From: Methanotrichaceae archaeon
GTDB taxonomy: Archaea; Halobacteriota; Methanosarcinia; Methanotrichales; Methanotrichaceae
DNA: 64,000 nucleotides
Direction of reading: 5' to 3'
NCBI GenBank assembly: GCA_963754945.1
Contig: CAVWIG010000017.1
Coordinates: 212,623-276,622, forward strand
The number at the start of each line of letters is the position of its first letter. The stretch's first letter is position 1. This document shows positions 3,589 to 38,886 of this stretch, in pieces. The notes under the pieces were generated by a model. The model was not told the origin of the DNA. It did no database searches and saw only the letters and a program-made list of their open reading frames with translations. The position numbers and the translations under genes are program-made.

Positions 3589-3607
3589 AAAACCTAATCA
3601 AGATCGC

Positions 3608-7513: not shown

Positions 7514-8502
7514 TGCTGTGTCGATTAAGCTTAAATAGTTTAAATATAAATATTATATCATGAACTATGTTGATAATAGAGACTGGCCAGAATATAATGC
7601 CCAACTTGTTCGAAGAGGCGAATTCTATCTCGATTTGAGTTGTGTGAAGAACTGGAGTTGGGAATTAAGAGAAATGAATAGAAAGAAAACAGGCGCTCCA
7701 TACAAATACCCTAACACTTTTATAACTTTTGCATCAATAATATACTCTTTTTTTCGAATGCCATATCGTCAACTTGAAGGATTCTTTGGACGACTTTCGA
7801 CCTATGAACCAGGATTGGTGGCGGCAGATTATACCACCCTCCATAAGCGAATCTCTAAGCAAGATCTTGGAATAGAGATACCAGAGAACGACGCTGTTGT
7901 TGCAGTTGATTCAACTGGGATAAAGGTAACAAATAGAGGGGATTGGATGCGCGAGAAACACGGAAAGCAGCGGCGAGGATGGCTTAAAGTTCATGTGGCA
8001 GTCGACGTTGAATCAAAGAGATTATTGTCTATGGAAATTACAGAAGAAGACACCTCGGATAGCGAGGTTTTGCGCCCTTTGTTGAAAGACGTCAATATTG
8101 AGGAGGGGTTGATGGATGGCGCATATGACACAAACGACGCATTTGAATTTATGAAATCGAAAGGTGTAGATTGTCCAGGGATTAAGATCAGAGAGAACGC
8201 GATAGTAGGTAAAGATGCATCAGCCAGGTCAACAGCTGTTCTGGAATTCAAAAAAATGGGCTACAAGGGTTGGAAGCAAATGCATCAGTACGGTAGAAGG
8301 TGGGCAGTTGAAGGCTTCTTCTCATCGATCAAGCGTATCTTTGGTGAGACGGTTCGGGCATCTTCACCCGAAGGAATGGTCGCCGAGATTAAAAGAGCAT
8401 TCATTTTGTATAATATACTTAGGAGCATATAAGTAATTAGTTAAAATAAATTATGAATTCTTGAATAACGAAATAATACTATAATAATCATGCGACACAG
8501 CA
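7514..8502 (+). mobile_element. IS5-family element, 989 bp, copy 1
   Basis: TIR TGCTGTGTCG/CGACACAGCA; 8-bp TSD GATAGATC at 7506-7513 and 8503-8510; near-identical to 62392-63380. Confidence 0.95.
7560..8432 (+). CDS. IS5-family DDE transposase
   Basis: VAVDSTGIK, WLKVHVAV, DGAYD and RWAVEGFFSSIKR motifs. Confidence 0.95.
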   Translation: MNYVDNRDWPEYNAQLVRRGEFYLDLSCVKNWSWELREMNRKKTGAPYKYPNTFITFASIIYSFFRMPYRQLEGFFGRLSTYEPGLVAADYTTLHKRISKQDLGIEIPENDAVVAVDSTGIKVTNRGDWMREKHGKQRRGWLKVHVAVDVESKRLLSMEITEEDTSDSEVLRPLLKDVNIEEGLMDGAYDTNDAFEFMKSKGVDCPGIKIRENAIVGKDASARSTAVLEFKKMGYKGWKQMHQYGRRWAVEGFFSSIKRIFGETVRASSPEGMVAEIKRAFILYNILRSI

Positions 8503-9115
8503 GATAGATCTGGAATATACAGGTAACCACCCATGCCTGTCACTCCCTTATACTGGCCATCAACCCGCACACTTGCATTATCGACTCCCACACCGTCCTT
8601 GAGCACAGTTACATCTACAGAAGATGTTATAATCGCCGTTCCCACAACAATGAGTAAGGCAAAAAGAATTGCAACCAGTAAGCAAGTCAGAGTCTTTTCT
8701 TTCATAGATTTCATTAAGAATCTTCAAGGACAAATGTTTTGCTGCGGATATAGTCTTTGCCAAGGCCAAAGAGTCGGGCTGGGGTCTCATCTCCCCCGCA
8801 CGTGAACATCAGTGAACGCTCACCATATTTAAACCACAGTAGGGGCCGAGTATCTGGATCAGTATCAAGACAAATCCCACTACTAGGCCCTTCGAAACGG
8901 TCCACATTTCCTCCTTTGCTACATCCTGTTCCCACATCGCGGAAAGGTTTCAACCCTTTCAAGTATATCTATTGTTTATTTTATAAATATATTTCTTGTT
9001 GTGAAAATAATAGTACAACAACTAAAACATACGGAACTTCGAGAGCGCGTACACCAGTAAAAAATCGAAAAAATGATGGCCTCATGAAACCACCATCCCC
9101 GATCCGAGGCTAGTA

Positions 9116-9526
9116 TTATGCCGTTATCCGGTGAAGCTTATCAATGGCCACCGATGCATTTTTTCCGTCAGTAAGATATATCAGCTCCATCTCATCGTTG
9201 GAAATGATCGTCCCCAGGGAATAACCCTTATTAAACTCGGTGATGTAGAGCGTTTTATTATCCAAACCAATGGCTCCGGCAAAACCTTCACCGATCTCTG
9301 TCTCATTCTTAAGATTGATTGTCAAATTCCCAGCGAAAATTCGATCCATCTGCTCCAAGAACGTAAAATTGATGATTCCACTCGCAGTCGAGTTGGAGTA
9401 CCCTTTTCCTTCATCATACCCACTCCACGAACCAGTCCATTTACCTAGCAGGTCTGGAACTTTCGCAGCACAGATCCCAGTGGACAAGACCAGGACCAAC
9501 AATGCTAAACACAGAATCTTTTTCAT
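9116..9526 (-). CDS. Secreted hypothetical protein (beta-rich)
   Basis: Signal peptide MKKILCLALLVLVLSTGICAA followed by VPDLLGKWTG. Confidence 0.8.
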   Translation of the reverse strand: MKKILCLALLVLVLSTGICAAKVPDLLGKWTGSWSGYDEGKGYSNSTASGIINFTFLEQMDRIFAGNLTINLKNETEIGEGFAGAIGLDNKTLYITEFNKGYSLGTIISNDEMELIYLTDGKNASVAIDKLHRITA

Positions 9527-9738
9527 ACATATCCTTCAGTGAGTTTCGATTATTAATTTTCCTGAAGATAGACATCTTATCTATGGAGCTGGGGAGAAAG
9601 CCTTTGTTTACCGATCCCATAATCCTCTCAGCTTCCGTTCTACACATGCACATCACAATAGTGGCCGTGTTGTGGTTAGCCTTTGGCCATGTGCAAAAGT
9701 ATTTCCATGAGGTTTATCGTCGCACAACAGTGGTATAT

Positions 9739-10254
9739 ATGAAAAACTGGAAGGTGCTGATGGTGGCAATATTGCTGCTGACTGCGGCGGTTTTCGTTAT
9801 GCAATTGGCTTATGCAAAAGAAGAATCTATGGGCATGGCAAATGCATCACTAAGCGCCTCATCCAACAAGACAGCACTCGTCTCATTTGTCGAGTCTGCT
9901 GTGGCCTATGCCCAAGAGAACGGCAAAGATAAAGCGCTCAAGGAGTTCAGCAATAAGACCGGCACGTTTGTCCGTGGAGATCTCTACATCTATGCCTATG
10001 ACTTCAATGGAACTAACATTGCACATCCATTCAAACCCGATTGGATAGGCAAGAGCAAGCTAAACATGACTGATTCCAATGGCGTACCATTCATCAAGAA
10101 CCTGATCAATGTTGCCGAGGAGGGAAAAGGATTTACTTACTTCATCTTCCCGAACCCTGCTCACGGTAACAGAGATGAGTTCAAGATCGCCTACGTTATG
10201 AAAGTGGATGACAATTGGTGGCTGGGCTCTGGAATCTACCTATCATGTTCGTGA
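9739..10254 (+). CDS. Stand-alone secreted single Cache-domain protein
   Basis: Signal peptide from ATG 9739; GDLYIYAYDFNG..AHP, DSNG..FI and WWLGSGIY Cache motifs. Confidence 0.88.
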   Translation: MKNWKVLMVAILLLTAAVFVMQLAYAKEESMGMANASLSASSNKTALVSFVESAVAYAQENGKDKALKEFSNKTGTFVRGDLYIYAYDFNGTNIAHPFKPDWIGKSKLNMTDSNGVPFIKNLINVAEEGKGFTYFIFPNPAHGNRDEFKIAYVMKVDDNWWLGSGIYLSCS

Positions 10255-10377
10255 TCGATGGCTATTTCCTTTTTGATAGGCGAGGAGATGCAGCACATCT
10301 ATTTTTCATCGATAGCAGTGAATCTTCGTGGGCAGGTCTTACCAGTAAATGATCTAATCCGCCTATAAACGGTAATT

Positions 10378-10824
10378 TTATTTTAAAACGCAATACCCCG
10401 CAGCTTGCTGCGGCTGGGATAAAGAGCATGTAACTCCAACTTAAGGATGCTTCAGATTTTGTAGAGCATTTTTATGCGTCGGCGGGAACATGCCCCGCTG
10501 CTTGCAGCGGGGTCCGCCGACGCAACGTTGACTCAGCGAAAAGTTGGCTTGCTGGATCAATATAAAATAAATATATTTTGAATATATCCGGATTCAAACA
10601 ATTTTATATAGCGCACTAATAGTATTGTTCGATGATTTTAGCATACGAAATCAATATACGGAAAATCGCTATACGCCAACAAGCGCCTATTTCTCATGAA
10701 AGTGTGCCAACAGATATCAATTTCATTTTTCGTGCATGAGCCTCTGTCCTGATCTTTAGGCTTATGTGGGTTTTATATGCCATTTATCCAGCCGCAGCAA
10801 GCTACGGGTATACGTTTAAAATAA
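10378..10824. repeat. Non-coding MITE/palindrome-bounded element
   Basis: Imperfect inverted repeats of about 43 bp (10378-10423 vs 10783-10824) containing CCGCAGCTTGCTGCGG-type palindromes; internal hairpin at 10475-10524. Confidence 0.7.
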
Positions 10825-10922
10825 TATTCTGAGAGGACGCCATTACTTTGATGATACAATAAAGCGAAATAAACGAGAGTTGCATCCTAAGAGGATCGTT
10901 GTCCTGCCCCTTTCTTGCACTC

Positions 10923-11561
10923 TCAATGTTGCATATCGAGCAATACCTGGTAGCTTCCGATTAGCTGGCCTTTGGCTATTGTCAGCTTTCCGTGGCCTTT
11001 TAGTTCACCTTCGTCGCTGGTGGTATTTACTATTATTCGACCCACGGTCTCTGTAGAATTGCTATCAGCAGGTTTTTCCAGAGGCTCATTAAGATCAGCG
11101 CTTAGTGTTATGTTGCTTCGAGCGAGCGTCACTTCAACATTGGTCAGCAAGTAGGTGCTCTCGCCAAGTCTGAGATGACCCCTATATGTTACATTACCTT
11201 CCTCTGCTAAAATCTCCTTTCCCACCTCATCAAGGGTTTTATTAGATGCTAGGAGTTTTCTAACATTCACAGGCCCGACAGGCCTAACGCTTTCAATGCT
11301 GATCCTTAAGATGTACGATTGGTCGCCCATCAAGGCAAATCCTTGCCAGTGGTGGAAGATTATTCCTACGGGTGCACCGTCCATATTCCCAAAAGGTTGG
11401 ACATGAGGAGCATTATTTTGTCCAAGCTCATTGCGAGTCATGTTGCCAATTTCTCCCATATCCGCTGGCTGAGCAAAGCAGACGGGGGTCAAACTCACCA
11501 GTCCTAATGCCGTTAATACGAGGAACAGAAATCTTACCTTTAGCCTCATTTTCAAACCCAT
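10923..11561 (-). CDS. Secreted hypothetical protein (paralog of 11733-12611)
   Basis: Signal peptide; GFALMGDQSYILRISIE and YRGHLRLGESTYLL align with the neighbouring gene. Confidence 0.8.
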   Translation of the reverse strand: MGLKMRLKVRFLFLVLTALGLVSLTPVCFAQPADMGEIGNMTRNELGQNNAPHVQPFGNMDGAPVGIIFHHWQGFALMGDQSYILRISIESVRPVGPVNVRKLLASNKTLDEVGKEILAEEGNVTYRGHLRLGESTYLLTNVEVTLARSNITLSADLNEPLEKPADSNSTETVGRIIVNTTSDEGELKGHGKLTIAKGQLIGSYQVLLDMQH

Positions 11562-11732
11562 TTAACTATCGATTGCCTCGGATGAGGACAGTGTTGAAGT
11601 AGAACCATTGAACGGTTTACTAACCGATTTCTCAAAAAGTGATGGAAGATCTTCAGAGGTCCTCGGATCTTTCATCAGAGATTCATAGCTTCCTCGCAAA
11701 CACTCCCCTACCCTGCTTGCAAGCCTTCGCTC

Positions 11733-12611
11733 TCAAGCTTTCTGAGGCGTTTTATCGTTTGGCTTTACCATATCCATGTTCATTCCAAATCTCTTGCCCA
11801 TCTGGTTCATTCCACCAAAAGCGCAGCCTCTCATGCCGTTGTGCTCTCCCATGCCGCGCTTCATCTCTATGAGGACTTTGTATTGGCCGCTGTACTGACC
11901 ACTGTTCATGGTAAGTGTGCCCTCTCCAACAGTGCTGTTATCCTGACGAGATGTGGTTACGGTGATATGGCCTACGACTGCGGTGGGCTTATCCTTAGCG
12001 TTATGCTTGGGGCCGGCAACGTCGGCGTTTATTGAGGAGCTGTTGTTACCCGAAAGGGTCAGTTTGATGTTCAATAGATTATAGTTGCTCTGGCCCATGT
12101 GCAAGCTGCCGTTGTAGGATGCTGCCGATATCTCAGCGTTCATCTTCGCTTTTATGTCAGACTTGATTTGGCCCAGGGTCTTATTATCTGATATGAGCTT
12201 CTTGATGTCCGCAAAATCGGGCTTTATTTGGCCTTCAATGTTCATCCTGATAACGTGGTTCTGGTTGCCGCTCATGGCAAAGCCGCTGCCCATCTTACGG
12301 ATTTCAATGGCTTTGGTTGCATTCCAATTTTCATTCTTCCAGGATCCATTCTTCTCCGCCATCCCGAAGGCTTCCTTTCCGCGCGTTACCATCTCAGGAT
12401 TTCCCCAGGGCCCCATTCCGGAATTCCACATTGGCCTCATTCCGGGCTGGAAGGCGTTACAACTGGACTTCTCTGAGGCGTTACAAGGTGTCTTTGAAGC
12501 TCCGTCATTCGTGGGCGCAGACAGGGCAGGCACAGCGATTAGGCACATGGCCACGATGCCTACCAGCGCTAAAGATTTTATTGTCAATTTCATGGTTTTA
12601 CTAACCTCCAA
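11733..12611 (-). CDS. Secreted hypothetical protein with Met/Gly-rich termini
   Basis: Signal peptide; GFAMSGNQNHVIRMNIE and YNGSLHMGQSNYNL align with 10923-11561. Confidence 0.8.
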   Translation of the reverse strand: MEVSKTMKLTIKSLALVGIVAMCLIAVPALSAPTNDGASKTPCNASEKSSCNAFQPGMRPMWNSGMGPWGNPEMVTRGKEAFGMAEKNGSWKNENWNATKAIEIRKMGSGFAMSGNQNHVIRMNIEGQIKPDFADIKKLISDNKTLGQIKSDIKAKMNAEISAASYNGSLHMGQSNYNLLNIKLTLSGNNSSSINADVAGPKHNAKDKPTAVVGHITVTTSRQDNSTVGEGTLTMNSGQYSGQYKVLIEMKRGMGEHNGMRGCAFGGMNQMGKRFGMNMDMVKPNDKTPQKA

Positions 12612-13387
12612 GAACGACCATCTATAATGTCAAGCGATCGTTCTGCAACTTGCCTATTATCTTGAACGATAGATGAATGTATGACCGAACGAACAATAAA
12701 TCAGGTAGTCGTAAAGTTCGTATAAAACGTTCAATTATAGATTAATACCAGCATTATAGTTCTATTTTGTTTTTATTGTTTATTTTCGGTTTTATTATCA
12801 TTTTAAGCATCTATTTGGATCTAAAATGCCAAAATGACTATGAATTCACGCATTGACTTCTTATCCCCTAATATGCCAGGTTATTCTGGAATAGAAGTGG
12901 TTTTCGTGGGACCTGCTGAAAGAGCCTTCTTTGAAAGCTCGAATTATCATGAATCCAAGAGTTCCCCCAAATCCGCCTTCATCTTACGATTATGGACCTA
13001 ATCAAATGAACCTGAGGAGATCTCTCTGGGTGCTCTTGACTGGATAGATTGATGCAGATATGTGATGTAGACATGTAATCGGGCACATTCAATGAGGATT
13101 ACGAACAGCAGTTCAAACGCTGCTCCTTGATCTTCGCTGAGTCTAACAATTCAGATACATAAGCGTTTCAAGAAATCGCGCAAGAGCCACGCTTGATAAA
13201 GGCATAGACTTGATGCAAACGGAACTAAAATTTAGGTTATAATCGAATACTGAACGTTCATGAGAGTTTGTTAACTGTTCGCTGAGAGTCAGTCAGATAG
13301 TTCGTTCGGTCCAGTTTTTATATATCGTTCAAATGCAAGGGGTGGTGTGGCTGGTCTACAATGAGATCATCCGCGTGGGGGTTGATT

Positions 13388-13582
13388 ATGAAATCCATTA
13401 GAGAATACCTAAAACGTAAGCCAGGACTAAAGGGTCAGATCCTCGACCGTGGAGAGCTTAAGCGAGTAGCTCGTGCCTGTGAATTGAGCCCTCAAGAGGC
13501 TAGATCTGAATTAAGAAAGCTGGGGTTTAACTTAACAAAGAACAATCATGGGCTGCCGATATGGATGAAACAAGCAGATTGA
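13388..13582 (+). CDS. Small putative HTH DNA-binding protein
   Basis: ELKRVARACELSPQEARSELRKLG is HTH-like; purine-rich RBS-like sequence before ATG 13388. Confidence 0.6.
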   Translation: MKSIREYLKRKPGLKGQILDRGELKRVARACELSPQEARSELRKLGFNLTKNNHGLPIWMKQAD

Positions 13583-13618
13583 AACAAATCAGAGTTACAA
13601 CGATATTGAGGTTGAATC

Positions 13619-13861
13619 ATGTCAATCACGAAGATGGACGCAAACGGTAGAGTGCTGCTTCCTATCAGCTTAAGATACAGACTTGATTTAAATGATGGAG
13701 ATAAGTTTGCCATAGATCAGCTTGGAGACGGCACCATAATCCTAAAAAAAGTAAGAAAACGGATGGGTTTCGAAAGATGGGTGAACGAAGAAACCTTTCG
13801 AGTATCCAAAGACCTTTGTGCCAATGACGAGAAACATTCGCCATCGCTCAATAGCCGTTAG
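13619..13861 (+). CDS. AbrB/MazE/SpoVT family DNA-binding protein
   Basis: TKMDANGRVLLPISLRYRLDLNDGD signature. Confidence 0.85.
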   Translation: MSITKMDANGRVLLPISLRYRLDLNDGDKFAIDQLGDGTIILKKVRKRMGFERWVNEETFRVSKDLCANDEKHSPSLNSR

Positions 13862-13998
13862 CTCAACAAGCCGTCAACTCAATCAGACAACTAACTGAAC
13901 TCATTAGATTCATAAATGAGGTATGACGTCGGTAATTGTCAACCTACCGCGCACACGAGAGCTTTTACCCTGTAAAGAAAGCGACTGGCAGTGCCAAG

Positions 13999-15927
13999 TC
14001 ACTCCTTCAGGCTTCCTTCTTTAATTCTCGAACCACCCGGCGGTAGGAATTGAACAATCCTGTCAACAGAGGCAATGGATTTCAAGTACGCCCTATCATC
14101 GATCTTCTCTGAGAAGGACCTATAGATTCTCTTGGCCAGATCGTCCGCGTTGTACTCTCCCGGCTCGATCTCAAACGCCTGGCCCACTTTTGGCTTAACA
14201 GCAGAAGTCGGACCTCCAATCAGCGTCTCGTCCTCGATCCCGATGGTTGTCCCAACCGGCGTATCTCTGAAGTACCGGCGCTCGCCCCTGATAACAAACG
14301 CTCCTTTTTTTAGATACTCGCCGTGTTCAGGAGTCTTGGTGACTTGCTCGGCATTAACCATGTAGCAGTCACCTGCAGCCAGGCCTGCCTTCCAGATGCT
14401 TGAGTAGCTGACGGCGAACTGCGCAGCCTCAAGCAAGGTGGTTTCCGGGACTTCTTCGCCCTCTGTTTTAATGATTGTCAGAGGCGCACCGGGAGCGTCG
14501 GTATGGAATACCAGGTCCCGCTTCTCCATGTACTTGGCGTAGATCTCTTCATTTGTTTCCGCATCCCGACCGCCGATGACCAGGAAGCCGTCGGAGGATG
14601 TGAACCACCTGAACCTCTCATACCACTTGGGCTTCCTCCTCCGGATTACCATCCTGGTCTTCTTGGGCACTGCTTTGCTTACTTTCAACGCCTCGGTTAT
14701 CAGAAGTGCCTCTTTAGCGCCCTTCGCCTTCTTGGCCATCTCCTTGGCAGAATCGTAGTATCGTTGGGCGTTCTGAGGCACTGTGAGGCCTGCGTTCAGG
14801 TCAATCTCGACCCCGTCAAGAACAATGCCCACCTTGCCAGTGTGGTCCATTGACCTGATCATTCGAGCCTGAGGGAGCTCGGATGTCCTTATCCTCTCCC
14901 AGATCTGGGTGAATGAGAAACCCTTTTCTTTAGCGGCGGAGATTACCTTGAGCAACTGTTCTATATCTCTGTACTTCTGGTAGATCAGCTCGCCAATTAC
15001 CACCAGCTCCTTTTCCTTGGATGCAAACTCTTCGATGGCCTTGCGCTGAATCTCGATTCTGCGGTCTATGGGATTCTGCTTTGGCTCCGCGACCCTGTCC
15101 ACGAAGAAAGCGTCCAGGGCATCGCTAAAGGTATCGTAGCTTTTTCTCTCCAAACCTTCGTAGAGTTTTAAGGGTTTGGGCAGGGCGTCAAAGGGAAGTC
15201 CGTCTTTCAGAACAATGTGCGGCTCGATTGTATCTGGCATGAAGACATCGGCAAGAGCCTTATGAACTCGATCTATCTCCTCAGTCTCAAGTTCAGCAGC
15301 AGGCTTGTTCTTGTCCACGCCAGCCTGTAGGCAGACCTCCTCTCCGTAGGTTCCGCCCATGTTCAAGCATCTGACTATTGTCCTGACCAGGTCCTGTTCG
15401 GAAGTGGCCAGCAGACCTGAAAGCTCTGACCGGGAGATTGTCCTCGGGTCAAGCTGGATGGTGTGGTACAGGTACTCCTCGCCTTTGGCCATCTTCCTGC
15501 CCCGGAAGACCATCTTTTTCAGCATGGTGAGAATACGTCTTGACTCGTCCAGGAGGATCATGCTCCCCTTCGGGAACAGCTCGACGATGAGGTAATTGCT
15601 TACGCCGTCGCGGTCCACGGTTATCTCCACAACCCTGTCCAGGTCAAACTGTTGAATGTCGGCGATCCTTCCACCCGATAGGCGAATCCTGAGCATTGTA
15701 GGAAACTGGGGCGGAGTCTTGGAAGCTTTCCGCTCTTTCTTCGTCAGGTGGATGCGACGGCCTGCTTCCATTAAGAGGTCCATCCGGCCCTCTCTGGGGG
15801 ACTGGACTGAGAGAGAAATCGTTTCTGCATTTAGCTGGTATGCCTTCCCCACATGGCCGTCCACCAGCCTCTCCCGGAGTTCAGCAACCATGGCTGCAAC
15901 ATCCACGTTGCTCATCGCCTTCTTCAT
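13999..15927 (-). CDS. rqcH: Rqc2/NEMF (NFACT) ribosome quality-control protein
   Basis: Start MKKAMSNVDV at 15927; FDLDRV, VELFPKG, KWYERFRWF..GGRDAETNE and GAFVIRGER motifs. The ORF-track extension to 16182 overlaps the divergent gene. Confidence 0.92.
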   Translation of the reverse strand: MKKAMSNVDVAAMVAELRERLVDGHVGKAYQLNAETISLSVQSPREGRMDLLMEAGRRIHLTKKERKASKTPPQFPTMLRIRLSGGRIADIQQFDLDRVVEITVDRDGVSNYLIVELFPKGSMILLDESRRILTMLKKMVFRGRKMAKGEEYLYHTIQLDPRTISRSELSGLLATSEQDLVRTIVRCLNMGGTYGEEVCLQAGVDKNKPAAELETEEIDRVHKALADVFMPDTIEPHIVLKDGLPFDALPKPLKLYEGLERKSYDTFSDALDAFFVDRVAEPKQNPIDRRIEIQRKAIEEFASKEKELVVIGELIYQKYRDIEQLLKVISAAKEKGFSFTQIWERIRTSELPQARMIRSMDHTGKVGIVLDGVEIDLNAGLTVPQNAQRYYDSAKEMAKKAKGAKEALLITEALKVSKAVPKKTRMVIRRRKPKWYERFRWFTSSDGFLVIGGRDAETNEEIYAKYMEKRDLVFHTDAPGAPLTIIKTEGEEVPETTLLEAAQFAVSYSSIWKAGLAAGDCYMVNAEQVTKTPEHGEYLKKGAFVIRGERRYFRDTPVGTTIGIEDETLIGGPTSAVKPKVGQAFEIEPGEYNADDLAKRIYRSFSEKIDDRAYLKSIASVDRIVQFLPPGGSRIKEGSLKE

Positions 15928-30537: not shown

Positions 30538-31995
30538 ATGATTATCTACAACACCATGAGCGGCAAGAAAGAGCCGTTTCAGCCAATTCACAAGAATCGC
30601 GTCAACATATTCGTCTGCGGACCAACTGTTTACGACAACTCTCACATCGGACACGCCAGGACCTACATAGCATTCGATGTCGTCGCTCGCTACCTCAAGT
30701 ACAAGGGCTTTTCCGTGTTTTATCTTCAGAACATCACCGATGTTGACGATAAGATCATACAGAGGGCTTCGGAGCTAGGCATTGAGCCGGACGCTTTGGC
30801 GCGCAAGTTTGAGCGAAGGTACTTGGAGGATATGCAGGCGTTGGGCGTGACAAATGTCAACCTCTACGCCAGGGCGACAGAGCACATTCCCGAGATCATC
30901 AGCCAGATTGAGCGGCTCGTGGAGTTGGGTTTTGCTTACGAGACGGAGACTGGTGTTTACTTCGACGAATCTAGATTCGAGGACTTCGGGAAGCTGTCGC
31001 ATCAGACTTTTGAGGAGGTTGCGCGCCACAGGATAGAGCCCGATCCGACCAAGAGGAACCCGGGAGATTTCTCTTTATGGAAGAAACGGGAAGACGGGGC
31101 TAAGGTAACCTGGGATTCGTCTTGGGGAAGAGGACGACCAGGATGGCACATCGAGGACACGGCCATCACGGAGACCTATTTCGGACCTCAGTACGATATC
31201 CATGGCGGAGCAATGGACCTAATATTCCCCCACCACGAGGCAGAGATCGCTCAGATGGAGGCGACGTCAGGAAAAAAGCCACTGGTTAGGGCTTGGATGC
31301 ACACCGGCTTTCTCAACGTCAAGGGCGAGAAGATGTCTAAGTCCCTGGGAAATTTCATGACCATAAGGGAAATGCTGGAGAGATGCGATGCCGAAGCTTT
31401 CAGATTGTTCGTCCTCCTTGCTCACTACCGATCACCAATTGATTTTTCCGAAGAGGTGCTGGAGCAGTCTCGAAAGAGCCTTGAAAGAATTCGCCATCTG
31501 ATCAAGGTCATCGAAGAACAATTAGAAACGCCCGGCGAGATCTCGGAAAGCGAAGGTGTCGACCCAATACTGATCAAGGCAAGAGCTGAGTTCTTGGATG
31601 CGATGGACGATGATTTCAATACGCCTTACGCGCTTCGAACCGTATTCGACCTGGTGAGGGATATAAACCGCAGAATAAACGAAAAAAACGTATCGAAGGA
31701 GACTTTAAAGGATACGAAACTGCTGCTGGAGGAGTTCGGCAGGGTCTTCGGAATCAGCTTTTCTTCCGGGTCAGAAAAATCCATAGGAAAAGAAGAAGAC
31801 ATGGCTCGCGACCTGATCGAGCTGCTTATCGAAATAAGGCAGAAGCTCCGCGAAAAAAAGGACTGGCAGCTCGCCGATGAGATACGTAACAGGATGAAGG
31901 AATTGAACGTCGTGTTGGAGGATGCCGAAGGAGGTGGCAAATATACACTTCGAGGAGAGAATTGCCTTAATCGCAAAACTTATAACCTTCAATAA
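30538..31995 (+). CDS. cysS: Cysteinyl-tRNA synthetase
   Basis: MIIYNTMSG start; CGPTVY, HIGH, GRPGWHIED, FPHHEAE and KMSKS motifs. Confidence 0.97.
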   Translation: MIIYNTMSGKKEPFQPIHKNRVNIFVCGPTVYDNSHIGHARTYIAFDVVARYLKYKGFSVFYLQNITDVDDKIIQRASELGIEPDALARKFERRYLEDMQALGVTNVNLYARATEHIPEIISQIERLVELGFAYETETGVYFDESRFEDFGKLSHQTFEEVARHRIEPDPTKRNPGDFSLWKKREDGAKVTWDSSWGRGRPGWHIEDTAITETYFGPQYDIHGGAMDLIFPHHEAEIAQMEATSGKKPLVRAWMHTGFLNVKGEKMSKSLGNFMTIREMLERCDAEAFRLFVLLAHYRSPIDFSEEVLEQSRKSLERIRHLIKVIEEQLETPGEISESEGVDPILIKARAEFLDAMDDDFNTPYALRTVFDLVRDINRRINEKNVSKETLKDTKLLLEEFGRVFGISFSSGSEKSIGKEEDMARDLIELLIEIRQKLREKKDWQLADEIRNRMKELNVVLEDAEGGGKYTLRGENCLNRKTYNLQ

Positions 31996-32020
31996 CAAGT
32001 GTTAATTCGGTGAGCTTAAA

Positions 32021-32303
32021 ATGAGGGATCTATTTTGCCAACCCCGGATATGAACAGCCGAGTTCGAAGATAGAGCGCCTGCCGCCATCAGCAAAGCTTG
32101 TTCTTAAAGTGCTGGAGTCAGGCAGCCTTTTAACGCAGAAGGACATAATAAGAAAGACGTATCTTCCGGCAAGAACCGTAAGGTACGCTTTGAGCAGACT
32201 TAAAGACGAGGACCTTCTTCAGGAACGCTTCTATTTCCAGGATGCGCGCCAGAGCCTCTATGGGCTGAATGCCCAAGCCCTGGAGGTGACGACGACCGCA
32301 TAA
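32021..32303 (+). CDS. Winged-HTH regulator, predicted +1 frameshift at TTT-TGC (32033-32038)
   Basis: Paralog of the 24010 C-terminus. Homology (LPPSAKLV) extends upstream of GTG 32109 with no in-frame start; SD-preceded ATG 32021 is out of frame. Confidence 0.75.
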
Positions 32304-32469
32304 ATTATTTTCTAATTATTATGTATAAAGTTATCAGGTGATGGGGATTGCAATCACGGATCGTTGAACAGTTCAATTGGATATTCCCGTGCTGATGCTG
32401 CCTGGCCAGGTTGGTTTGCCTGGTATGGGTTCTTCTTCTCCGCTGCCACCTTCCACATTTCGGGAGGCT

Positions 32470-32820
32470 TTAGTTTGGGCGTACTGATAAAGGAATTCGA
32501 GGGATAAACGACTGTGCTATTTTGGGAGACCTAAGAGGCAAGGAGCACCAATATGGCACGCCTCCTGGATGATAGAATTCAAGATGCGCAACGTGTGCCT
32601 GGGCAGAAAGCTGAGAAGAGCCTTTTGTAGCGCCGTGAAAGGCTATGTGTCGTAATAAGGAGGGAGGCAAAAGTCTTGGTGTAGGAGGGAGAAAAGAGGT
32701 GTATCGACTTTTGCCTATTACTAATACGACTATTGCCGAAATATAAGGTTTTCGCTCCAGGGTAGTGAGGTGTAGTCTCATACAATAAATGACCGAAATA
32801 GAGAAAATCGAATACTCAAG
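32470..32820 (+). ncRNA. Candidate structured ncRNA A
   Basis: Nested helices CTATTTTGG/CCGAAATAG, GGCACGC/GTGTGCC, AGCCTTTT/GAAAGGCT and AGGCAAAAGTC/GACTTTTGCCT; G-U pairs favour the + strand. Confidence 0.45.
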
Positions 32821-33282
32821 CGGGGCCAACGCCGATCCACAGCGCCCTTGTAGGAGGAACCTGTCAGTGTGCAGGCCTGACTCCGCTCAGAGTTCGATCA
32901 TATGCCTGGGCTAGAAGGCGGCACGGCACTGGAATTTCACACAGCGCCCATTTCATAGGGACCCCAAGGCATCGTGAGATGTGGGTCTCGTGCTCGCCTT
33001 CCGCCTTCGGCTTGTGACGCGTCATGCCCCGGCCGTGTATTGACGCCAAGCTGTCGGCAGATTGCTACGCAAGTTACGGCGTGCAACTTTCCTCTGCTGA
33101 ATATCAGCTTAACAGGCTCGTAGCCGAATGCAGTGCCACGAAGGCATGCATCTCCTGGAACAAGGACGCGATCCACCCTAGAAGCGACCGCATGCTCACC
33201 CATCGATAGGGCAAACATCCAAATCTCCTTGCCAAACAGAGCATTATCAGATACGTTAAGCCCACGGCACACCCGCCACCCT
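32820..33282 (-). ncRNA. Candidate large structured ncRNA B (about 460 nt)
   Basis: Many G-U-containing helices on the - strand, a possible pseudoknot, TATA box at 33311-33305, and no credible ORF. Confidence 0.6.
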
Positions 33283-33302
33283 TTGCATGGCGCGCCAAAT
33301 TA

Positions 33303-33323
33303 ACTATATAATCGTTATACATA
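33303..33323. promoter_or_regulatory. Divergent TATA-box region
   Basis: AT island ACTATATAATCGTTATACATA between two GC-rich structured segments. Confidence 0.5.
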
Positions 33324-33586
33324 TTTGTAGTTGTCGCTCGGAAACCAGCCTTTGGGTAAGTGCATAAACTGTTATTCGGAAGGAATAGCGAGCTTAAGGC
33401 AGGCGCTGGGTCAAACACAACCACGGCGTGGTGGCCGATTCAATCGGACGCCTCTCCTAGTTGGCAGGCGTGGGCCCACAATAGATTTGATATTGCAGAA
33501 AGATAATATTGTGGACAGCGCAAACCTATGAATGACTAGCAATTGCTCCGATTCGATATCAGCAATCTTGGAATGGTGGGCGAGAT

Positions 33587-34042
33587 ATGATCGAAAATAA
33601 GACACAGCTTTTGGCTGATTTGGCCTACATTGGCTCGAAAGTTCAAGCAAAGACCAGCGTGTACCTGATCGCTGGTGCGGCCCTTCTGTGGCATGGCTTG
33701 AAAGATGTCACTAAGGATATCGATATCTGTTGCTCATATGAAGAAGCTGACAGTATTGTATCGGAACTCAGGCTGTCTGGCAGGATGGAGTCGGTCACTG
33801 GTATCAACGAAATTCACTTCCTCCGGTTATTCCTGAAATCATTCACGCTTCAGATCTTCATCAACGAGGTGTGGATGGGCGATGAATACCAGCTTCTGGA
33901 AGCAGCCCACTGTGATTCACTCACATTTGGTGGTGTGGCCTTCTTGATTCCCGATATCAAAACTCTCATTATGATCCAGGATAGGCACATCCAAGCACTG
34001 TTCAACGATTGGAAGAAACTGAAAGGAGAGGTATCTGTCTGA
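33587..34042 (+). CDS. Nucleotidyltransferase-fold protein (DUF6036/AbiEii-like)
   Basis: YLIAGAAL..GLKDVTKDIDI signature. Confidence 0.75.
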   Translation: MIENKTQLLADLAYIGSKVQAKTSVYLIAGAALLWHGLKDVTKDIDICCSYEEADSIVSELRLSGRMESVTGINEIHFLRLFLKSFTLQIFINEVWMGDEYQLLEAAHCDSLTFGGVAFLIPDIKTLIMIQDRHIQALFNDWKKLKGEVSV

Positions 34043-34097
34043 ATTGTGATGAGGATATCAGCCTTTAGAGATTACTAATCTAAAGAGGGCAATGGCC

Positions 34098-34364
34098 TTA
34101 TCTTTCTCCTTTTAAAACACCCCATCCACGTTCTGTAAGCCGGATTTGATTCATGCCATTTTTGAGAGATTGCCCTTCTTCATAAGTACCAGATTGTGTA
34201 TTTATGAAACCCCATCTTTCCAAGCGTGTTAAGCGATCTCCAAATTCCGTTTCATCAAGCCCGAGGGCTCTATTGACATTGACCGGATTGACCCATTTGG
34301 TCAGGGATCTTTCAAGGATCGATTCGAGGATCTTCCTATCTGTTCCAACTATGTAATCAATCAT
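34098..34364 (-). CDS. Small winged-helix protein
   Basis: DRKILE, LTRLERWGFI and RLTERGW wHTH pattern. Confidence 0.65.
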   Translation of the reverse strand: MIDYIVGTDRKILESILERSLTKWVNPVNVNRALGLDETEFGDRLTRLERWGFINTQSGTYEEGQSLKNGMNQIRLTERGWGVLKGER

Positions 34365-34771
34365 CTCTACTCCAATTTATCCTAGCACGATGGATCTTCG
34401 CTGCGTATCTATCATACTAGCTAACAAATATCTATAATGATTGTTATTAACATATAAATACCATTCATAAGCTGAATGCGACCACCTCCGGCATGTTAAA
34501 TGCCGACCGAATATTCTATTTGACGAGGGCAGGAAATCCTGGAGACCTTTCAATTCCCAACCTTCGTATGCAGAGGGAATGCTCCAGAGGGCTGGTGGAG
34601 AAGACCTTCGTAAGGTACAATCTTATAATGCACTTATAAGTCGCTACGCCTAGTTACAGGACATTACATATATATAGATTATAATACTTATCGATTTGGG
34701 AACCAAAAGCTTTTTATTTAAAAATATCGTATTAAGAGAATCGCAGAATAAGTTTAAATGGAGAATTTAAA

Positions 34772-34918
34772 ATGCAAAATAAAAAAGATAAGAGAACAAA
34801 GGCTGATGTAGGGAAGACAGCGGCATCTGGAATCGCAGATGCAAAGAAAGGGGTAGCGGATGTGGGGAAGAAGGGAGCACATGGAAAAACTGATGGAAAG
34901 AAAGGGTGGAAAAAGTAG
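34772..34918 (+). CDS. 48-aa Lys/Gly/Ala-rich small protein
   Basis: MQNKKDKRTKADVGKTAASGIADAKKGVADVGKKGAHGKTDGKKGWKK*; GGAGA RBS; internal ADVGK repeat. Confidence 0.5.
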   Translation: MQNKKDKRTKADVGKTAASGIADAKKGVADVGKKGAHGKTDGKKGWKK

Positions 34919-35082
34919 GAAAAAAAGTAGGAACCTGCTATTCCCAAATGATTAGTTGTCCAAGCAGCCGGCCTGCACCTAGTCGAGCGGTAGCAGTGAT
35001 GATTGAATGATGCCACCTTCCTGTCTCATTTTTGAATTAACGGCTCGCCTGCCTTTCGACCCTGTCCTTTTCGCACCATTCC

Positions 35083-35847
35083 TTAATGATCATAGTAGAT
35101 TTGGGGCTGATTCCTCATCATGTACCCGAACCCTAATCCCACTAACAGGCCCGTCAGATGTGCAGCATGAGCTATGCTGTCTCCTGTTCCCATCATCATG
35201 AAGTCCATGAAGGCAAAGAGAACGACTGCATACTGAATCCTCAAGGGAATTATAAAGAATAGCAGTACTCGAATTTCAGGGGCAATTATGGCCAGACATC
35301 CCATGACACCGAAGAGGGCTCCGCTTGCGCCTAGAAGGGTTCCTGTGGACACCAGCATCTGTCCCAGAGCAGCAGCCAACCCCGAGAACATGTATATCTC
35401 AAGGAAACGGGTCTCGCCAACGCGCCTCTCCAGTTCTACGCCAAAGAAGAAGAGGAACAACATGTTCCAGAAGAGGTGGTCGAAGTTGGCATGGACGAAC
35501 ATGTGAGTAATGAGCGTCCAGGGCCTCTGCATAACATATGCCGGGTTCAGAGCGAGATAGCCGTAAACGAACCCCGGAGCAATTAGACTTAAGAGGGATA
35601 CAAACACGCAAATGGCCAGTATAGCCATTGAGTAGCTCACGGGAAGACCGGTCGGAATCTTGCTCTTCCAGCTTCGGTTCTCCCAAGGTGCTGGGTCGTT
35701 CCAGTCATCTTTGTGCCTGAAATCATCCCTGCCGCCTATTGAGGCAAGAATTGGCCCAAGAATCAATGATCTTGTATACCTGAGACGGTCGTTTAGGCTT
35801 TTGCCAGTATAATTTTTGCTAATATTATTTATCTCCTCACTTGCCAT
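35083..35847 (-). CDS. Rhomboid intramembrane serine protease
   Basis: PWTLITHMFVH, HLFWNM, GASGA and AHAAHLTG motifs. Confidence 0.9.
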   Translation of the reverse strand: MASEEINNISKNYTGKSLNDRLRYTRSLILGPILASIGGRDDFRHKDDWNDPAPWENRSWKSKIPTGLPVSYSMAILAICVFVSLLSLIAPGFVYGYLALNPAYVMQRPWTLITHMFVHANFDHLFWNMLFLFFFGVELERRVGETRFLEIYMFSGLAAALGQMLVSTGTLLGASGALFGVMGCLAIIAPEIRVLLFFIIPLRIQYAVVLFAFMDFMMMGTGDSIAHAAHLTGLLVGLGFGYMMRNQPQIYYDH

Positions 35848-35978
35848 GATCCCTCAAAATGTTTCTTGAAACACCATTGTTGAGTATATTATTGAGTACA
35901 TTACAGCGTGCATAGAATATGCTATCAATAAAGTTCGCCAATGCATTATAATTTATCCATTTATCTCTTACTATCGAA

Positions 35979-36464
35979 CTATTCAGTCACATACTGGCCG
36001 TCGCGCAGCACTATGACGTAATCCGCTGAGTTCCTGAGGGCCACTGAAAAGCCTGGCTCGGCTCCGAAGATTATGGTCTCCTTGCCGTGCTCCATGGCTT
36101 TCATCAGAACAGGTTTTAAGTCAGCGTCTCTGGTGACCATGGCGATGGTATCTATGACTGGATTATAGATCATGTCGATGCCCTCGACTGCCATCCTGAC
36201 GTCAACGTCACTGGTGCATATGACAGGTTCGAACCCCTGGTTCTCCACTGCCTCAACGAGTTTCTCAGATGCGTACTGGTTCAGGAACACCTTGCCCATC
36301 TTGATGTCGCCGTAATCCTTAAGGATGTCCCTAATCTCCTCAAGATCCATCTGGAACTCCTTGCGAAGCATGTTTGGACCATCCACTAGAAGACCTATCT
36401 TCTTTCTGCCTCTTTCCTTCTTGGAGCCAAGATAATTCATGATGTGTTCGAAGTGTATCGCCAT
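35979..36464 (-). CDS. NYN-domain protein (TIGR00288 family)
   Basis: LLVDGPNMLRKEF, DVDVRMAVE and TRDAD motifs. Confidence 0.9.
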   Translation of the reverse strand: MAIHFEHIMNYLGSKKERGRKKIGLLVDGPNMLRKEFQMDLEEIRDILKDYGDIKMGKVFLNQYASEKLVEAVENQGFEPVICTSDVDVRMAVEGIDMIYNPVIDTIAMVTRDADLKPVLMKAMEHGKETIIFGAEPGFSVALRNSADYVIVLRDGQYVTE

Positions 36465-36576
36465 CAGATCACATAATCCTTGAGATAACCCCAGACTGTA
36501 TCATATAAAAATCTATCTCATATATTATTTTATCTATCTTATACTCCGTCTACTCTTGTGTGTCCGTGCTCTCTTG

Positions 36577-37347
36577 TCACGGAATTTTGTAGATCTTCTT
36601 TATGTTCTTGGTGGTGGCAGAAGCGACCTCAGATGGCGATAGTCCTTTTATCTTGGCGATTAGCCTTACCGATTCGAGAACATTCATAGGTTCGTTCCTC
36701 CCTCGTTTTGGGGCAAGGAAAGGGCTGTCAGTCTCCACGAGAAGGTGATCTAGAGGGACGTTTCTAGCCAGCACTTGATGCTGACCGGAGCGGCACACAA
36801 CTGTTGCTAAAGAGATGTAGAAGCCTCGGTCCACTGCCTGCTTCATTGTATCCATGCTGCCGCCGTAACAGTGAAACACGACCTTGTCCAGGTCCTTTAC
36901 CATATCCAGGGCCTGCTGCTCGGCATCCCTTGAGTGGATAACCAGCGGAAGATCGACGGATTTGGCTAGGTCAATTACCTTCTGAAAGACCTGAACCTGA
37001 TGGTTCCTGGCCGCTTCATCTTTACACCTGTAATGATCCAGGCCCGCCTCCCCTATGCCAACGGCCTGACCGGCATTCTCTTTGATAAAATCAAGCTGAG
37101 ATTCCAGGTCCTTGTTGCTTGTCCCTTCCAGGGAGTTGGGTGAAAGCCCAAGAGTCGCCCGCATGAAGTCGTGCTTTTTCGCCAACTCCAGGCTCTTCCT
37201 GTTTGTGGCAATGTCGACGCCGGAGTTGATCATCATCACGACGCCCGCTTCTCGGGCCCTATTCATCACCGCGTCCCTGTCTTTATCGAAATGCTTGAAA
37301 TCGAGGTGACAGTGGGAATCTATTACCCCATCTCCGAACTCGTTCAA
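36577..37347 (-). CDS. tatD: TatD-family hydrolase
   Basis: IDSHCHLD, GIGEAGLD, VIHSRDA, FHCY and VETDSPF motifs. Confidence 0.93.
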   Translation of the reverse strand: MNEFGDGVIDSHCHLDFKHFDKDRDAVMNRAREAGVVMMINSGVDIATNRKSLELAKKHDFMRATLGLSPNSLEGTSNKDLESQLDFIKENAGQAVGIGEAGLDHYRCKDEAARNHQVQVFQKVIDLAKSVDLPLVIHSRDAEQQALDMVKDLDKVVFHCYGGSMDTMKQAVDRGFYISLATVVCRSGQHQVLARNVPLDHLLVETDSPFLAPKRGRNEPMNVLESVRLIAKIKGLSPSEVASATTKNIKKIYKIP

Positions 37348-38886
37348 TTGTGGTTTTCCTCCAAAAGCATCAATCTGTTTATGGCGCTGACAAGGGCCTC
37401 AACCGAGGCCATAACTATGTCCTCGCGTGCCGATCGGGCACTTACTTTCCTTCCGCGGTCGTCCTCGACCCCTATCACTACCTCAGCCAGGGCGTCTGAA
37501 CCTCCGGATATGGCCTCTATCCTGAAATCAGAGAGGCGTATGGACGCGTCGCCGTCCATGAGTCCCTGTACTGCCTTTAAAGCGGCATCGACAGGTCCAA
37601 CGCCGATGCTGGCCAGGACCTTCTCGTGACCACGCACTACGGCCTTAACAGTGGCTGTGGGGGTTATAATGTTCCCGGTCATCACTGAGACCTCTTTGAG
37701 CACCATAGCCTGGCTGGCCTTGGCCACCTCTCCAATGACCACGTCGGCTATGGTCTGAAGGTCGGCATCGGTGATCTGCTTTCCCTTGTCTCCCAGCTCT
37801 TTTATCCTATCCAGGATCTCATGGAGCTGCTCATCCGTTGGCCTGTAGCCAGCATCCTCGAGGACCTTCTTAACAGCGTGCCGGCCTGTGTGCTTTCCAA
37901 GGACTATCCTTCTTCTGTGGCCAACCATCTCAGGAGTCATTATGCCCGGCTCAAAGGTCTTGCTGTTTTCGAGGATTCCGTGGCTATGAATTCCGCTCTC
38001 GTGAGAGAAGGCGTTTTCACCGACTATGGGGGCAGTTATTGGTATTTTCGCTCCTGTTAACCGCTCAACAAGCCTTGCAGTCTCTACCAGGTACTCCGTT
38101 TTTATGCTCGTGGTTGCACCGTAAATTGAGTGCAGGCTCATCACAGTCTCTGCCAAATTTGCATTGCCAGCCCGCTCCCCCAGACCGTTGACGGTAACCT
38201 GGATCTCTCTCGCACCGGCCTCCACTGCGGAAAGGCTGTTGGCAACAGCGAGGCCGAAGTCGTTATGGCAGTGGACATCCACGACCATGTCAACGTACTC
38301 GCAGATCCCCTTCACAAAGGCGTAGAAGGCCGAAGGGACAGCAACTCCCACGGTGTCTGGGATGTTGATGATGTCGCAGTGGACCTCCTCGACTGCCTTG
38401 AAAATTCTGTGGAGGAACTCCGGGGATGTCCTGGTGGCGTCCATGGCAGAGAAGAGGCATGTCCTTCCCTGATCCTTCACGTATTCCACTGTCTCAACTG
38501 CCCCGGCCACTATCTCGTCGTGGCTCTTCTTTATCGTGTGGGCTATCTGGATGTCTGACGTTGGCACGAAGACGTGGACGAGACCAACATCAGCATCGAG
38601 ACAGGCTTGTGCGTCTGCCTTGACAATTCTGGAAAGTCCGCAGACCTGGGCAGAGAGGCCAGCTCGGGCAATTTGCCGGACGCTCTCGAACTCGCCCTTG
38701 GAAGACACAGGAAAACCAGCCTCGATGATGTTCACACCGAGCTTATCGAGCTGCCTGGCAATAGCAAGTTTCTTTTCAGGGGTGAGTGAAACACCCGGGG
38801 TCTGCTCTCCATCGCGGAGAGTCGTGTCAAAAATTCTAACTCTCTCGCCGCGAAGATCTCTTACATCGTAGAAGACGATCCCTCAT
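37344..38886 (-). CDS. leuA: 2-isopropylmalate synthase, predicted +1 frameshift at CTT-CTA (38874-38869)
   Basis: [15 protein letters not shown] is in frame upstream of the first in-frame start (GTG 38735). EAGFPVSS (LeuA-type), HCHND, GERAGN and HESGIH motifs; C-terminal allosteric domain. Confidence 0.88.

Follow-up and report, generated by a model that had tools for sequence, protein, structure and literature searches.

A large structured RNA, very probably the product of an undescribed multi-copy gene family, in a Methanotrichaceae archaeon

The locus and the question

Does the minus strand of an intergenic gap downstream of an archaeal cysteinyl-tRNA synthetase (CysRS) gene encode an RNA and, if so, what kind of RNA is it? 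The gap lies in a stretch of 64,000 nucleotides (nt), hereafter the window, from contig CAVWIG010000017.1 (C17) of assembly GCA_963754945.1, a Methanotrichaceae archaeon whose genome is designated G000; all positions given without a contig are those of the window. An original prediction, made from the sequence and its open reading frames (ORFs), had proposed that a large structured RNA of unassigned nature is encoded at 33282-32820. The analysis reported here leads us to conclude, with considerable confidence, that 33296-32807 on the minus strand is the gene for an undescribed, lineage-specific, large structured non-coding RNA. It is one gene of a multi-copy family, the members of which are about 480-500 nt long. 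The proposal is therefore borne out in its essentials, as the element is non-coding, structured, expressed and preceded by a predicted promoter of its own, while it matches neither RNase P RNA, signal recognition particle (SRP) RNA nor an intron; its size was nearly right, with exact ends that differ from those we place. We regard it as a new family of RNA, and it is in the class, not in a demonstrated mechanism, that the newness lies.

A fold maintained by compensatory change

An nhmmer search with a profile of the first copies collected yielded 93 distinct full-length cores from 47 genomes among the loci sampled, and a MAFFT-based alignment of these copies was folded with RNAalifold. The consensus comprises 20 helices and 135 pairs, distributed into three domains. 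Double-sided, hence compensatory, change is seen in 74 pairs, to be compared with 38.3 +/- 3.2 in 300 column shuffles, not one of which reached 74 (0/300). The register is also specific: displacing the 3' partners by 1-3 columns lowers the proportion of canonical pair cells from 93.8% to 36.6-41.0%. The window copy itself forms 121 of 131 consensus pairs. The parts of the RNA to which the text refers are as follows (bp, base pairs).

33296-32807, minus strand: non-coding RNA of about 490 nt; 5' end predicted, 3' end in the oligo-U tract near 32807
33296-33016, minus strand: Domain 1, closed by the 12-bp helix H1, which takes in the 5' end (33295-33285/33027-33016)
Domain 1, minus strand, long-range helices: H2 33271-63/33037-30; H3 33262-47/33127-15; H9 33114-08/33050-44
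Domain 1, minus strand, further helices: H4 33241-38/33155-52; H5 33232-28/33165-61; H10 33099-94/33060-55
Domain 1, minus strand, hairpins: H6 33214-08/33201-195; H7 33188-86/33173-71; H8 33151-43/33137-28; H11 33087-78/33071-61
33281-33272, minus strand: G-rich segment GGGUGGCGGG, highly conserved, unpaired in the consensus fold
33005-32909, minus strand: Domain 2, with H12 33005-03/32911-09; H13 32999-91/32923-16; H14 32986-83/32964-61
Domain 2, minus strand, remaining helices: H15 32960-58/32949-47; H16 32946-40/32932-27
32889-32817, minus strand: Domain 3, with H17 32889-78/32828-17; H18 32877-69/32867-58; H20 32845-40/32834-29
Domain 3, minus strand: H19 32857-55/32848-46, with a UCCUCCU motif in its loop and stem

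Covariation is spread over the molecule, as illustrated by H2 (CG 61 / UA 26), H6 (CG 35 / UA 27), H7 (UA 31 / CG 27), H10 (GU 28 / GC 28 / AU 25), H15 (UA 75 / CG 8) and H18 (AU 28 / GU 19 / UA 14 / GC 7). Helix H1, which closes the first domain, also displays compensatory changes (AU 74 / CG 7 and UA 57 / CG 6). Shuffle and slide controls were applied to the H8/H9/H11 subdomain; a 52-sequence subdomain alignment gave 96.7% pairing against 91.7% after shuffling (0/500) and 15 double-change pairs against 6.0 (0/500), slid registers falling to 26-59%, and of the 30 pairs predicted by folding the subdomain alignment, 18 show compensatory change. Conservation among homologues is of the compensatory and not of the codon type. 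Because G·U cells (1685) are far more numerous than A·C cells (259), the RNA is read from the minus strand, and the argument by which the original prediction had fixed the strand, that of its G-U pairs, holds family-wide.

The helices that had been listed from the single sequence fared unevenly when scored on the 93 copies, two of them holding, two holding in part, and two failing together with a pseudoknot; the strings quoted do lie on the minus strand where they had been placed. The hairpin AUGUUUGCCC/GGGUGAGCAU is real and corresponds to H6, with compensatory change in 7 of its 10 pairs, and AUGCAUGCC/GGCACUGCAU corresponds to H8, paired in 92.8-97.7% of cells. From GCGGUC/GAUCGC the inner three pairs survive (UA 31 / CG 27 at the middle one) and the rest does not. 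The pairing GAAGGCGG/CCGCCUUC is canonical in 65.7% of cells: its 3' arm is indeed paired, and better so with a neighbouring repeat, AGGCG-AGCA at 32999-32991, forming H13. By contrast, GCUUAAC/GUUAAGC is contradicted by a pair that is canonical in just 4 of 93 copies, and AAGUUGC/GUAACUU by outer pairs that are A·G in 74/93 and A·A in 33/93; its place is taken by H11, GUUGCRCGC/GCGY-A-GCAAU, with GC 70 / AU 22 and GC 73 / AU 16. The pseudoknot suggested between ACGCC and GGCGU would require C·A in 49 copies and U·C in 55. As for the closing helix CGGGGC/GCCCCG, it is canonical in 91.6% of cells, both arms being near-invariant G/C, and it could not coexist with H1, H2 and H17, which covary.

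A partner for the G-rich segment GGGUGGCGGG was sought by an all-against-all scan of alignment columns, which produced isolated pairs resembling clade effects and no run of adjacent pairs. The genome contains the complement of this segment 8 times, including 2 occurrences in RNA copies, as compared with about 6 expected by chance. A kink-turn in the internal loop between H4 and H5 (GAUGA in the consensus, by eye) was considered and dropped, being absent from the window's own copy.

A non-coding transcript with a probable promoter and terminator of its own

The window copy holds two ORFs of 111 and 61 codons, and neither behaves as a gene. The first is free of stops in 3 of 93 copies and the second in 10 of 93; their lengths are congruent modulo 3 in 32/93 and 31/93 copies, respectively. 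Indels relative to the window copy, classed modulo 3, number 431, 1369 and 531, so that most are not multiples of three. Codon periodicity is absent, column entropy by codon position being 0.67/0.73/0.71, and Pfam returns no match for either of the two products. A short peptide starting at AGGAGAUG was also considered; it was rejected on account of a spacing of 1 nt and of a sequence unconserved in divergent copies.

The signals that would direct transcription of the RNA are readily recognized on either side of it.

33339-33297, minus strand: promoter block, with TATA box AAATATGT at 33326-33319 (-30..-23 relative to 33296) and an AT-rich proximal element including TTATATA at 33311-33305
32811-32796, minus strand: U-rich tract UCGAUUUUCUCUAUUU, directly past the last helix; T-runs stand at the same place in other copies

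All aligned copies share an upstream block of about 45 nt, CAACTACAAATATSTATAACGATTATATAGWTAGTTT, and similarity between copies begins sharply near 33339. Transcription probably starts at about 33296, from a promoter made of a B recognition element (BRE) and the TATA box AAATATGT, as judged from sequence; archaeal TATA boxes are usually found at -30..-23. The TTATATA motif, from which a start near 33282 had been deduced, is present and conserved; it would then belong to the AT-rich proximal region, the better-placed TATA box being AAATATGT. The start at 33296 is supported by two observations: H1 takes in covarying nucleotides at 33295-33285, and a natural variant breaks at 33297/33296. In this variant, locus L027 (G001:C41, 255-1351), the promoter block is followed by a Shine-Dalgarno sequence and a DUF3303 ORF (104 amino acids, aa; Pfam E 1.8e-17), and the RNA body resumes 400 nt further on, 75 nt past the DUF3303 stop, without a promoter block of its own. 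It looks like a promoter swap made by nature, or like a 3'-untranslated region (UTR) variant. At the other end, the U-rich tract is likely to be an archaeal terminator, with transcription predicted to stop at about 32807, and two metatranscriptome contigs of run X1 end at this very position. Taken together, the predicted start from a BRE/TATA promoter and the predicted stop in oligo-U would make the RNA gene a free-standing unit, neither leader nor UTR.

Expression was followed with contigs from 4 peat metatranscriptome runs, belonging to 4 studies, retained at a likeness of at least 90%, which established the presence of a very abundant RNA. Hundreds of contigs in all four runs fall on 32876-33290, with summed depths of 1.1e4 to 4.7e5, and the pile-up spans approximately 32807-33290. 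Over CysRS and the other neighbours the summed depth is 0-50, and it is 16-900 over 32742-32875. Single contigs of 64-115 nt reach depths of 1400-4200, as compared with 3-24 for CysRS contigs. The contrast between the RNA and its neighbours amounts to three to four orders of magnitude. Parts of the window devoid of contig cover (for example 32072-32205 and 32340-32473) are not to be read as silent.

A family of old paralogues

A BLAST search of 32000-35082 against 41 genomes (40 relatives and G000) gave many matches with shared sharp ends, which delimit a repeated unit from query positions 1744/1751 to 2426/2430, that is, approximately 33339 to 32653 of the window, on the minus strand. G000 itself contains one more full copy, 81-85% identical, on contig C29, together with further copies of the last 100 nt or so alone. 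The duplication shared by C17 and C29 spans 33346-32386; it includes a repeat of about 125 nt (32385-32508), downstream of the small-RNA module described below, which is also found at G000:C29:39470-39602 and twice in G001:C150.

The taxonomic family f1, which is probably Methanotrichaceae, is represented by 105 genomes, and a BLAST search with the core detects the RNA in 64 of them. A covariance model of a 146-position subdomain (R1, threshold E<=0.001) extends this to 79 of the 105, the genera concerned being g2 (58/59), g8 (10/16), g1 (2/2), g4 (3/3), g15 (2/2), and g16, g9 and g14 (1/1 each). The same model finds no match in g6 (0/7), g5 (0/3), g12, g13 and g10 (0/2 each), nor in g11, g7 and g3 (0/1 each). 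In an even sample of the class, R1 matches 51 of 74 f1 genomes and none of the 76 genomes that represent four sister families (0/3, 0/67, 0/4 and 0/2). A genome that carries the RNA has 1 to 7 matches by R1 and as many as 9 by BLAST; R1 has four in G000.

How old are these copies? Genomes from which two or more copies were sampled contribute 76 copies, and for 63 of these the nearest relative belongs to another genome; the median identity is 0.92 to the nearest copy of another genome, against 0.87 to the nearest copy of the same genome. Since most copies are closest to a copy in another genome, the paralogues are old and stably inherited. Their lineages predate the species that carry them, and this counts against a currently active transposon.

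Copies are located in intergenic gaps next to a variety of genes, among which are those for phosphoenolpyruvate (PEP) synthase, ScpA, ScpB, Lrp/AsnC, MgtE, MoaA, a carbamoyl-phosphate synthase fragment and TPR/HEAT proteins, and two copies sometimes lie within 1.5-13 kb. DUF1699 genes (Pfam E ~1e-56) are found 100-300 nt upstream, on the same strand, at L192, L184, L187, L176, L177, L191, L015 and L059; at L258 such a gene (2113-2520) stands between two truncated RNA copies. We considered the DUF1699 protein as a partner of the RNA and set it aside, the link being loose: G000 has 7 matches (C31, C28, C38 and C7 among them), none adjacent to the window copy, and the protein is also present in Methanosarcina acetivorans, while the RNA is in 0/67 genomes of the sister family f3.

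Divergent copies, which we call type B, were also noted. They occur at G000:C52:16972-17126 and G000:C29:287-425 (31-42 bits with R1), as well as in L015, L037, L007 (323-989) and L249 (167-235 bits with the nhmmer core profile). They retain most of the helices as well as the promoter block, and diverge strongly in the 5' portion of domain 1; at L007 a type B copy lies in tandem with a standard one.

Comparison with known RNAs

Does this family belong to a class already described? Scanned with Rfam 15 models (cmscan) at gathering level, the whole window matches tRNA-Cys (30466-30536) and nothing else. At E<=10, the segment 32000-34200 attracts only sR60, mir-263 and SOX2OT, with 12.8-16.1 bits against cut-offs of 45-51.3, which is noise, and 8 other copies (E<=1) only the UCA1 lncRNA model, with 27.1 bits against a cut-off of 80. 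Within this scope, the models for SRP RNA, group I and II introns, OLE, ROOL, GOLLD and HEARO/IscB omega RNA give no match, and the same is true of archaeal RNase P RNA (RF00373). The identity of the gene with that of RNase P RNA is ruled out, as the canonical RNase P RNA of the genome lies at G000:C10:32077-32378 (208.6 bits, E 1e-62); moreover, the four R1 matches in this genome contrast with the normally single RNase P RNA. In the full-text literature, covered mostly at the level of abstracts and leaving aside supplements and transcriptome papers in subscription journals, no such RNA appears for Methanothrix/Methanosaeta.

In kind, the RNA resembles the large ornate RNAs of bacteria, with which it shares no sequence or fold model, and it is archaeal. 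The class that comprises OLE, ROOL, GOLLD and others can be defined operationally by a length above 400 nt, many covarying helices and conserved nucleotides between helices. This definition covers the present RNA, with its approximately 490 nt and its 20 helices of 135 pairs, 74 of which show compensatory change.

OLE RNA (ornate, large, extremophilic), which we take to be Rfam RF01071, is an intricately folded bacterial RNA, usually present as a single copy, which is associated with the oap protein genes and is among the most abundant transcripts. It is described as several hundred nt long, with conserved nucleotides and a ribonucleoprotein (RNP) nature (PMC9723947). The likeness resides in size, intricacy of fold, conserved nucleotides between helices, abundance and restriction to a lineage. 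There is nevertheless no match in sequence or structure, and the RNA described here is archaeal, with 1-9 copies in a genome and no protein gene constantly beside it. ROOL and GOLLD are also bacterial, and often associated with phages or prophages. They are reported to be large ornate RNAs that form RNA-only multimeric assemblies (bioRxiv 10.1101/2024.12.08.627333). By analogy, self-assembly would be a conceivable mode of action for another large ornate RNA that is abundant and has several paralogues. The present RNA differs in that it matches no Rfam model and sits between housekeeping genes; viral contigs contain no match to its 22-base signature, in an exact-match test that divergent copies would escape. 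With archaeal RNase P RNA (RF00373), finally, it has in common its size class and a multi-domain fold with long-range helices; a stretch, GAGGAAAGU at 33096-33088, is superficially like what we take to be the P4 region of RNase P RNA. It departs from RNase P RNA in being multi-copy and patchy among genera, besides matching no model.

Should we see here the first ornate large RNA class of Archaea: an RNA of about 490 nt with three domains, several ancient paralogues, expression in Methanothrix like that of a housekeeping RNA, and a distinct biochemical function, whether as a ribozyme, as an RNP core or as a particle that assembles itself, which a coupled small RNA with an anti-Shine-Dalgarno-like motif might connect with the control of translation? 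This complete picture is plausible, while falling somewhat short of what we would call probable.

A coupled module with a putative small-RNA gene

The small RNA just mentioned corresponds to the last part of the repeated unit.

32755-32653, minus strand: small-RNA module, with a TATA-like box TTATATTT at 32746-32739 and a predicted hairpin RNA of about 65 nt
32715-06 and 32675-66, minus strand: stem arms of the module, GGCAAAAGUC and GACUUUUGCC
32689-83 and 32664-58, minus strand: CCCUCCU, in the module loop and in its 3' tail

A module of this kind, about 100 nt long, follows 73 of 92 copies of the large RNA on the same strand, at a distance of 50-148 nt (median 64). Approximately 25 nt past the TATA-like box begins a 10-bp hairpin, GGCRAAAGUC...GACUUUUGCC, which carries CCCUCCU in its large loop, and the G·U pairs of the stem favour the strand of the large RNA. 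Of the 17 modules in G000, 15 occur without the large RNA; each module that was inspected has a TATA-like box of its own, and these boxes are not homologous to one another. Sites in this genome include C14:10535-10637, C34:33136-33238, C40:4764-4869 and C28:199296-199389. The module is also found in genera that lack the large RNA, and Rfam has no match for it. We read it as a separate family of putative small-RNA genes with motifs that resemble anti-Shine-Dalgarno sequences. A parallel is offered by sRNA154 and sRNA41 of Methanosarcina mazei, which are likewise small RNAs encoded between the genes of an archaeon, with stretches complementary to ribosome-binding sites (RBSs) that they are proposed to mask (PMC5867862). 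The module differs from them by its multiple copies (17 in G000) and its coupling to a large RNA in 73/92 cases, and no homology is claimed. The presence of two CCCUCCU motifs in the small RNA, together with AGGAG and UCCUCCU motifs in the large one, may be a hint of a link to translation control.

Weighing the evidence

Several observations weigh against the interpretation of the locus given here. The fold of the single sequence is unremarkable: on the minus strand it has a z-score of -1.25 and is equalled by 11 of 100 shuffles, so that the shuffling check put forward with the original prediction goes against it, and the plus strand scores -2.22. The structural evidence is, as a consequence, comparative and not thermodynamic. 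The z-score is a weak test for an RNA of 460 nt, which by itself would wrongly favour the plus strand, and covariation outweighs it. The counts of compensatory change come from related sequences and thus overstate the number of independent events; despite this kinship, the register specificity of the fold is unambiguous. Because MAFFT is not a structure-based aligner, some helices are weak (H5, H7 and H12), and H1 has 19-24 non-canonical cells at two pairs. On the side of expression, contigs pool strains and paralogues and give neither strand, true ends nor a proper level, and an adapter read-through, seen once in run X1, puts the end of a fragment at 33287 instead of 33296. As for the family, truncated copies exist, no protein gene is constantly linked to it (DUF1699 is upstream in just 8/28 loci), copy number varies, and genera such as g6 (0/7) and g5 (0/3) lack it in genomes most of which are 91-99% complete. 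This patchiness and the variation in copy number fit an accessory rather than an essential function.

What the RNA might do

An RNA that is abundant, free-standing and elaborately folded, and whose paralogues are old, fits a stable molecule acting in trans, and fits neither a cis-regulator nor a selfish element. The RNA may act as an abundant stable scaffold, either the core of an RNP or a self-assembling ornate RNA of the OLE, ROOL or GOLLD kind, a mechanism that we put forward as possible though doubtful. In such a case the invariant nucleotides of junctions and loops (GGGUGGCGGG, UAAUG, CUAAUA, the GUAAC loop and GUGARAUUC) would make a binding or active surface, and the variable peripheral helices would be what distinguishes the paralogues from one another.

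Less likely, in our opinion, is a decoy or sponge linked to translation, in which the large RNA and the small RNA would titrate ribosomes, the RBSs of messenger RNAs or CCUCC-containing small RNAs by means of AGGAG(A)UG and UCCUCCU. The abundance of the large RNA and the small-RNA module with two CCCUCCU motifs that follows most of its copies would suit such a role, for which CAGGAGAUGCAUG, nearly invariant, and the UCCUCCU of domain 3 would provide the contacts; an archaeal precedent for anti-RBS small RNAs exists in M. mazei with sRNA154 and sRNA41 (PMC5867862). In the consensus fold, however, AGGAG is paired (in H4) and UCCUCCU partly so (in H19). These motifs, being invariant, give no covariation signal, a fold of 20 helices exceeds the needs of a sponge, and the module also stands alone, both in G000 (15/17) and in genera without the large RNA.

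A ribozyme, where the conserved junctions would form the active site for a lineage-specific RNA-processing or other reaction, is suggested by analogy and appears distinctly unlikely. The molecule is large and multi-domain, its long-range helices H1, H2, H3 and H9 enclose invariant single-stranded nucleotides, and in size and complexity it is comparable to RNase P RNA. For a housekeeping ribozyme, a patchy distribution with 1-9 copies per genome would be unusual; no ribozyme model in Rfam is similar, and no self-cleavage signature is visible.

We consider it very unlikely that the family represents a non-autonomous mobile element, akin to miniature inverted-repeat transposable elements (MITEs) or short interspersed nuclear elements (SINEs), or the leftover of an insertion sequence (IS) or intron, with a structure that serves mobility or is incidental. 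Multiple copies at dispersed intergenic sites, sharp unit boundaries, the truncated and tandem copies, and a downstream hairpin module repeated 17 times in G000 are what such an element would leave. Yet neither terminal inverted repeats nor target duplications are seen at the unit ends in alignments of 8 and 41 copies, judged by eye. The flanks examined contain no transposase, reverse transcriptase, TnpB or IscB, Pfam scans of the flanking ORFs in the window and at 5 other loci returning neither transposase nor TnpB, and there is no match to group II introns or HEARO. By these criteria the gene does not belong with the guide RNAs derived from transposons either, be they the omega RNAs of TnpB and IscB or the bridge RNA of IS110. 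In every lineage compensatory change has preserved the fold, the promoter is strong and conserved and expression very high, and for 63 of 76 copies the closest one comes from another species, not from among the sampled copies of their own genome. Orthologous positions have been stable across species so far. An empty-site comparison was attempted with G002, where synteny over CysRS and the neighbouring winged helix-turn-helix (wHTH) gene ends at 32336 with no RNA adjoining; the remainder of that locus matches nothing in 29000-38000, and no insertion boundary can be read.

That the RNA could act in cis as the UTR or leader of an adjacent gene, or else represent a coding sequence that has decayed or escaped recognition, is exceedingly improbable and already largely refuted: it could invoke L027, where the RNA body lies downstream of the DUF3303 ORF behind the same promoter block, the DUF1699 gene upstream at a minority of loci, and the 111- and 61-aa ORFs of the window copy, yet these ORFs are rarely free of stops and lack codon periodicity, no coding minus-strand sequence lies between the window RNA and the convergent wHTH gene downstream of it, most copies come with a promoter block and a U-tract of their own, and the neighbouring genes vary from locus to locus.

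Neighbouring features of the window

The RNA gene is surrounded by tRNA-Cys, CysRS, a small convergent wHTH gene, a 151-aa ORF without family, and genes for a rhomboid protease and a NYN protein.

30466-30536, plus strand: tRNA-Cys (GCA), directly before the CysRS ORF
30472-31995, plus strand: CysRS ORF
32003-32303, plus strand: wHTH gene (HTH_24/MarR-like), convergent with the RNA
33587-34042, plus strand: 151-aa ORF, divergent from the RNA, without Pfam family

Because the CysRS ORF begins at 30472, inside the tRNA, the true start of the protein must lie further downstream. A sequence of about 280 nt corresponding to the wHTH gene recurs many times within this genome family, with matches in genomes of two other families as well. 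The 151-aa ORF has relatives with 79-88% DNA identity in G001, G018 and G019, and in G018 its relative shares a contig with two RNA copies. Just past its stop, metatranscriptome contigs of three runs join 34041/34043 to 34552/34555, omitting about 510 nt, which suggests that the segment 34041-34555 is an insertion in this genome with respect to its relatives, or a removed segment. The base composition of the window is uneven, G+C falling to 33.5% at 22001-23000 and to 40-47% at 7001-14000, against about 50% elsewhere.

Significance for the biology of methanogens

To our knowledge, no archaea-specific class of structured RNA of this size has been described, and few large classes exist beyond ribosomal RNA (rRNA), RNase P RNA, SRP RNA and introns. 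Each new large class (OLE, GOLLD, ROOL, HEARO) led to new biochemistry. The evidence from which this family can be approached is unusually good at the start, with about a hundred diverse copies from which structure can be deduced, paralogues that can be contrasted, and abundance in RNA samples from wetlands. While remaining unannotated at present, such RNAs can absorb reads in libraries depleted of rRNA. The hosts appear to be Methanothrix and its relatives, which account for a large share of the methane made biologically from acetate and are the main acetate-consuming methanogens of wetlands and digesters. An abundant RNA restricted to this lineage could therefore bear on the physiology of its hosts, and it could also make a sensitive marker of them in metatranscriptomes.

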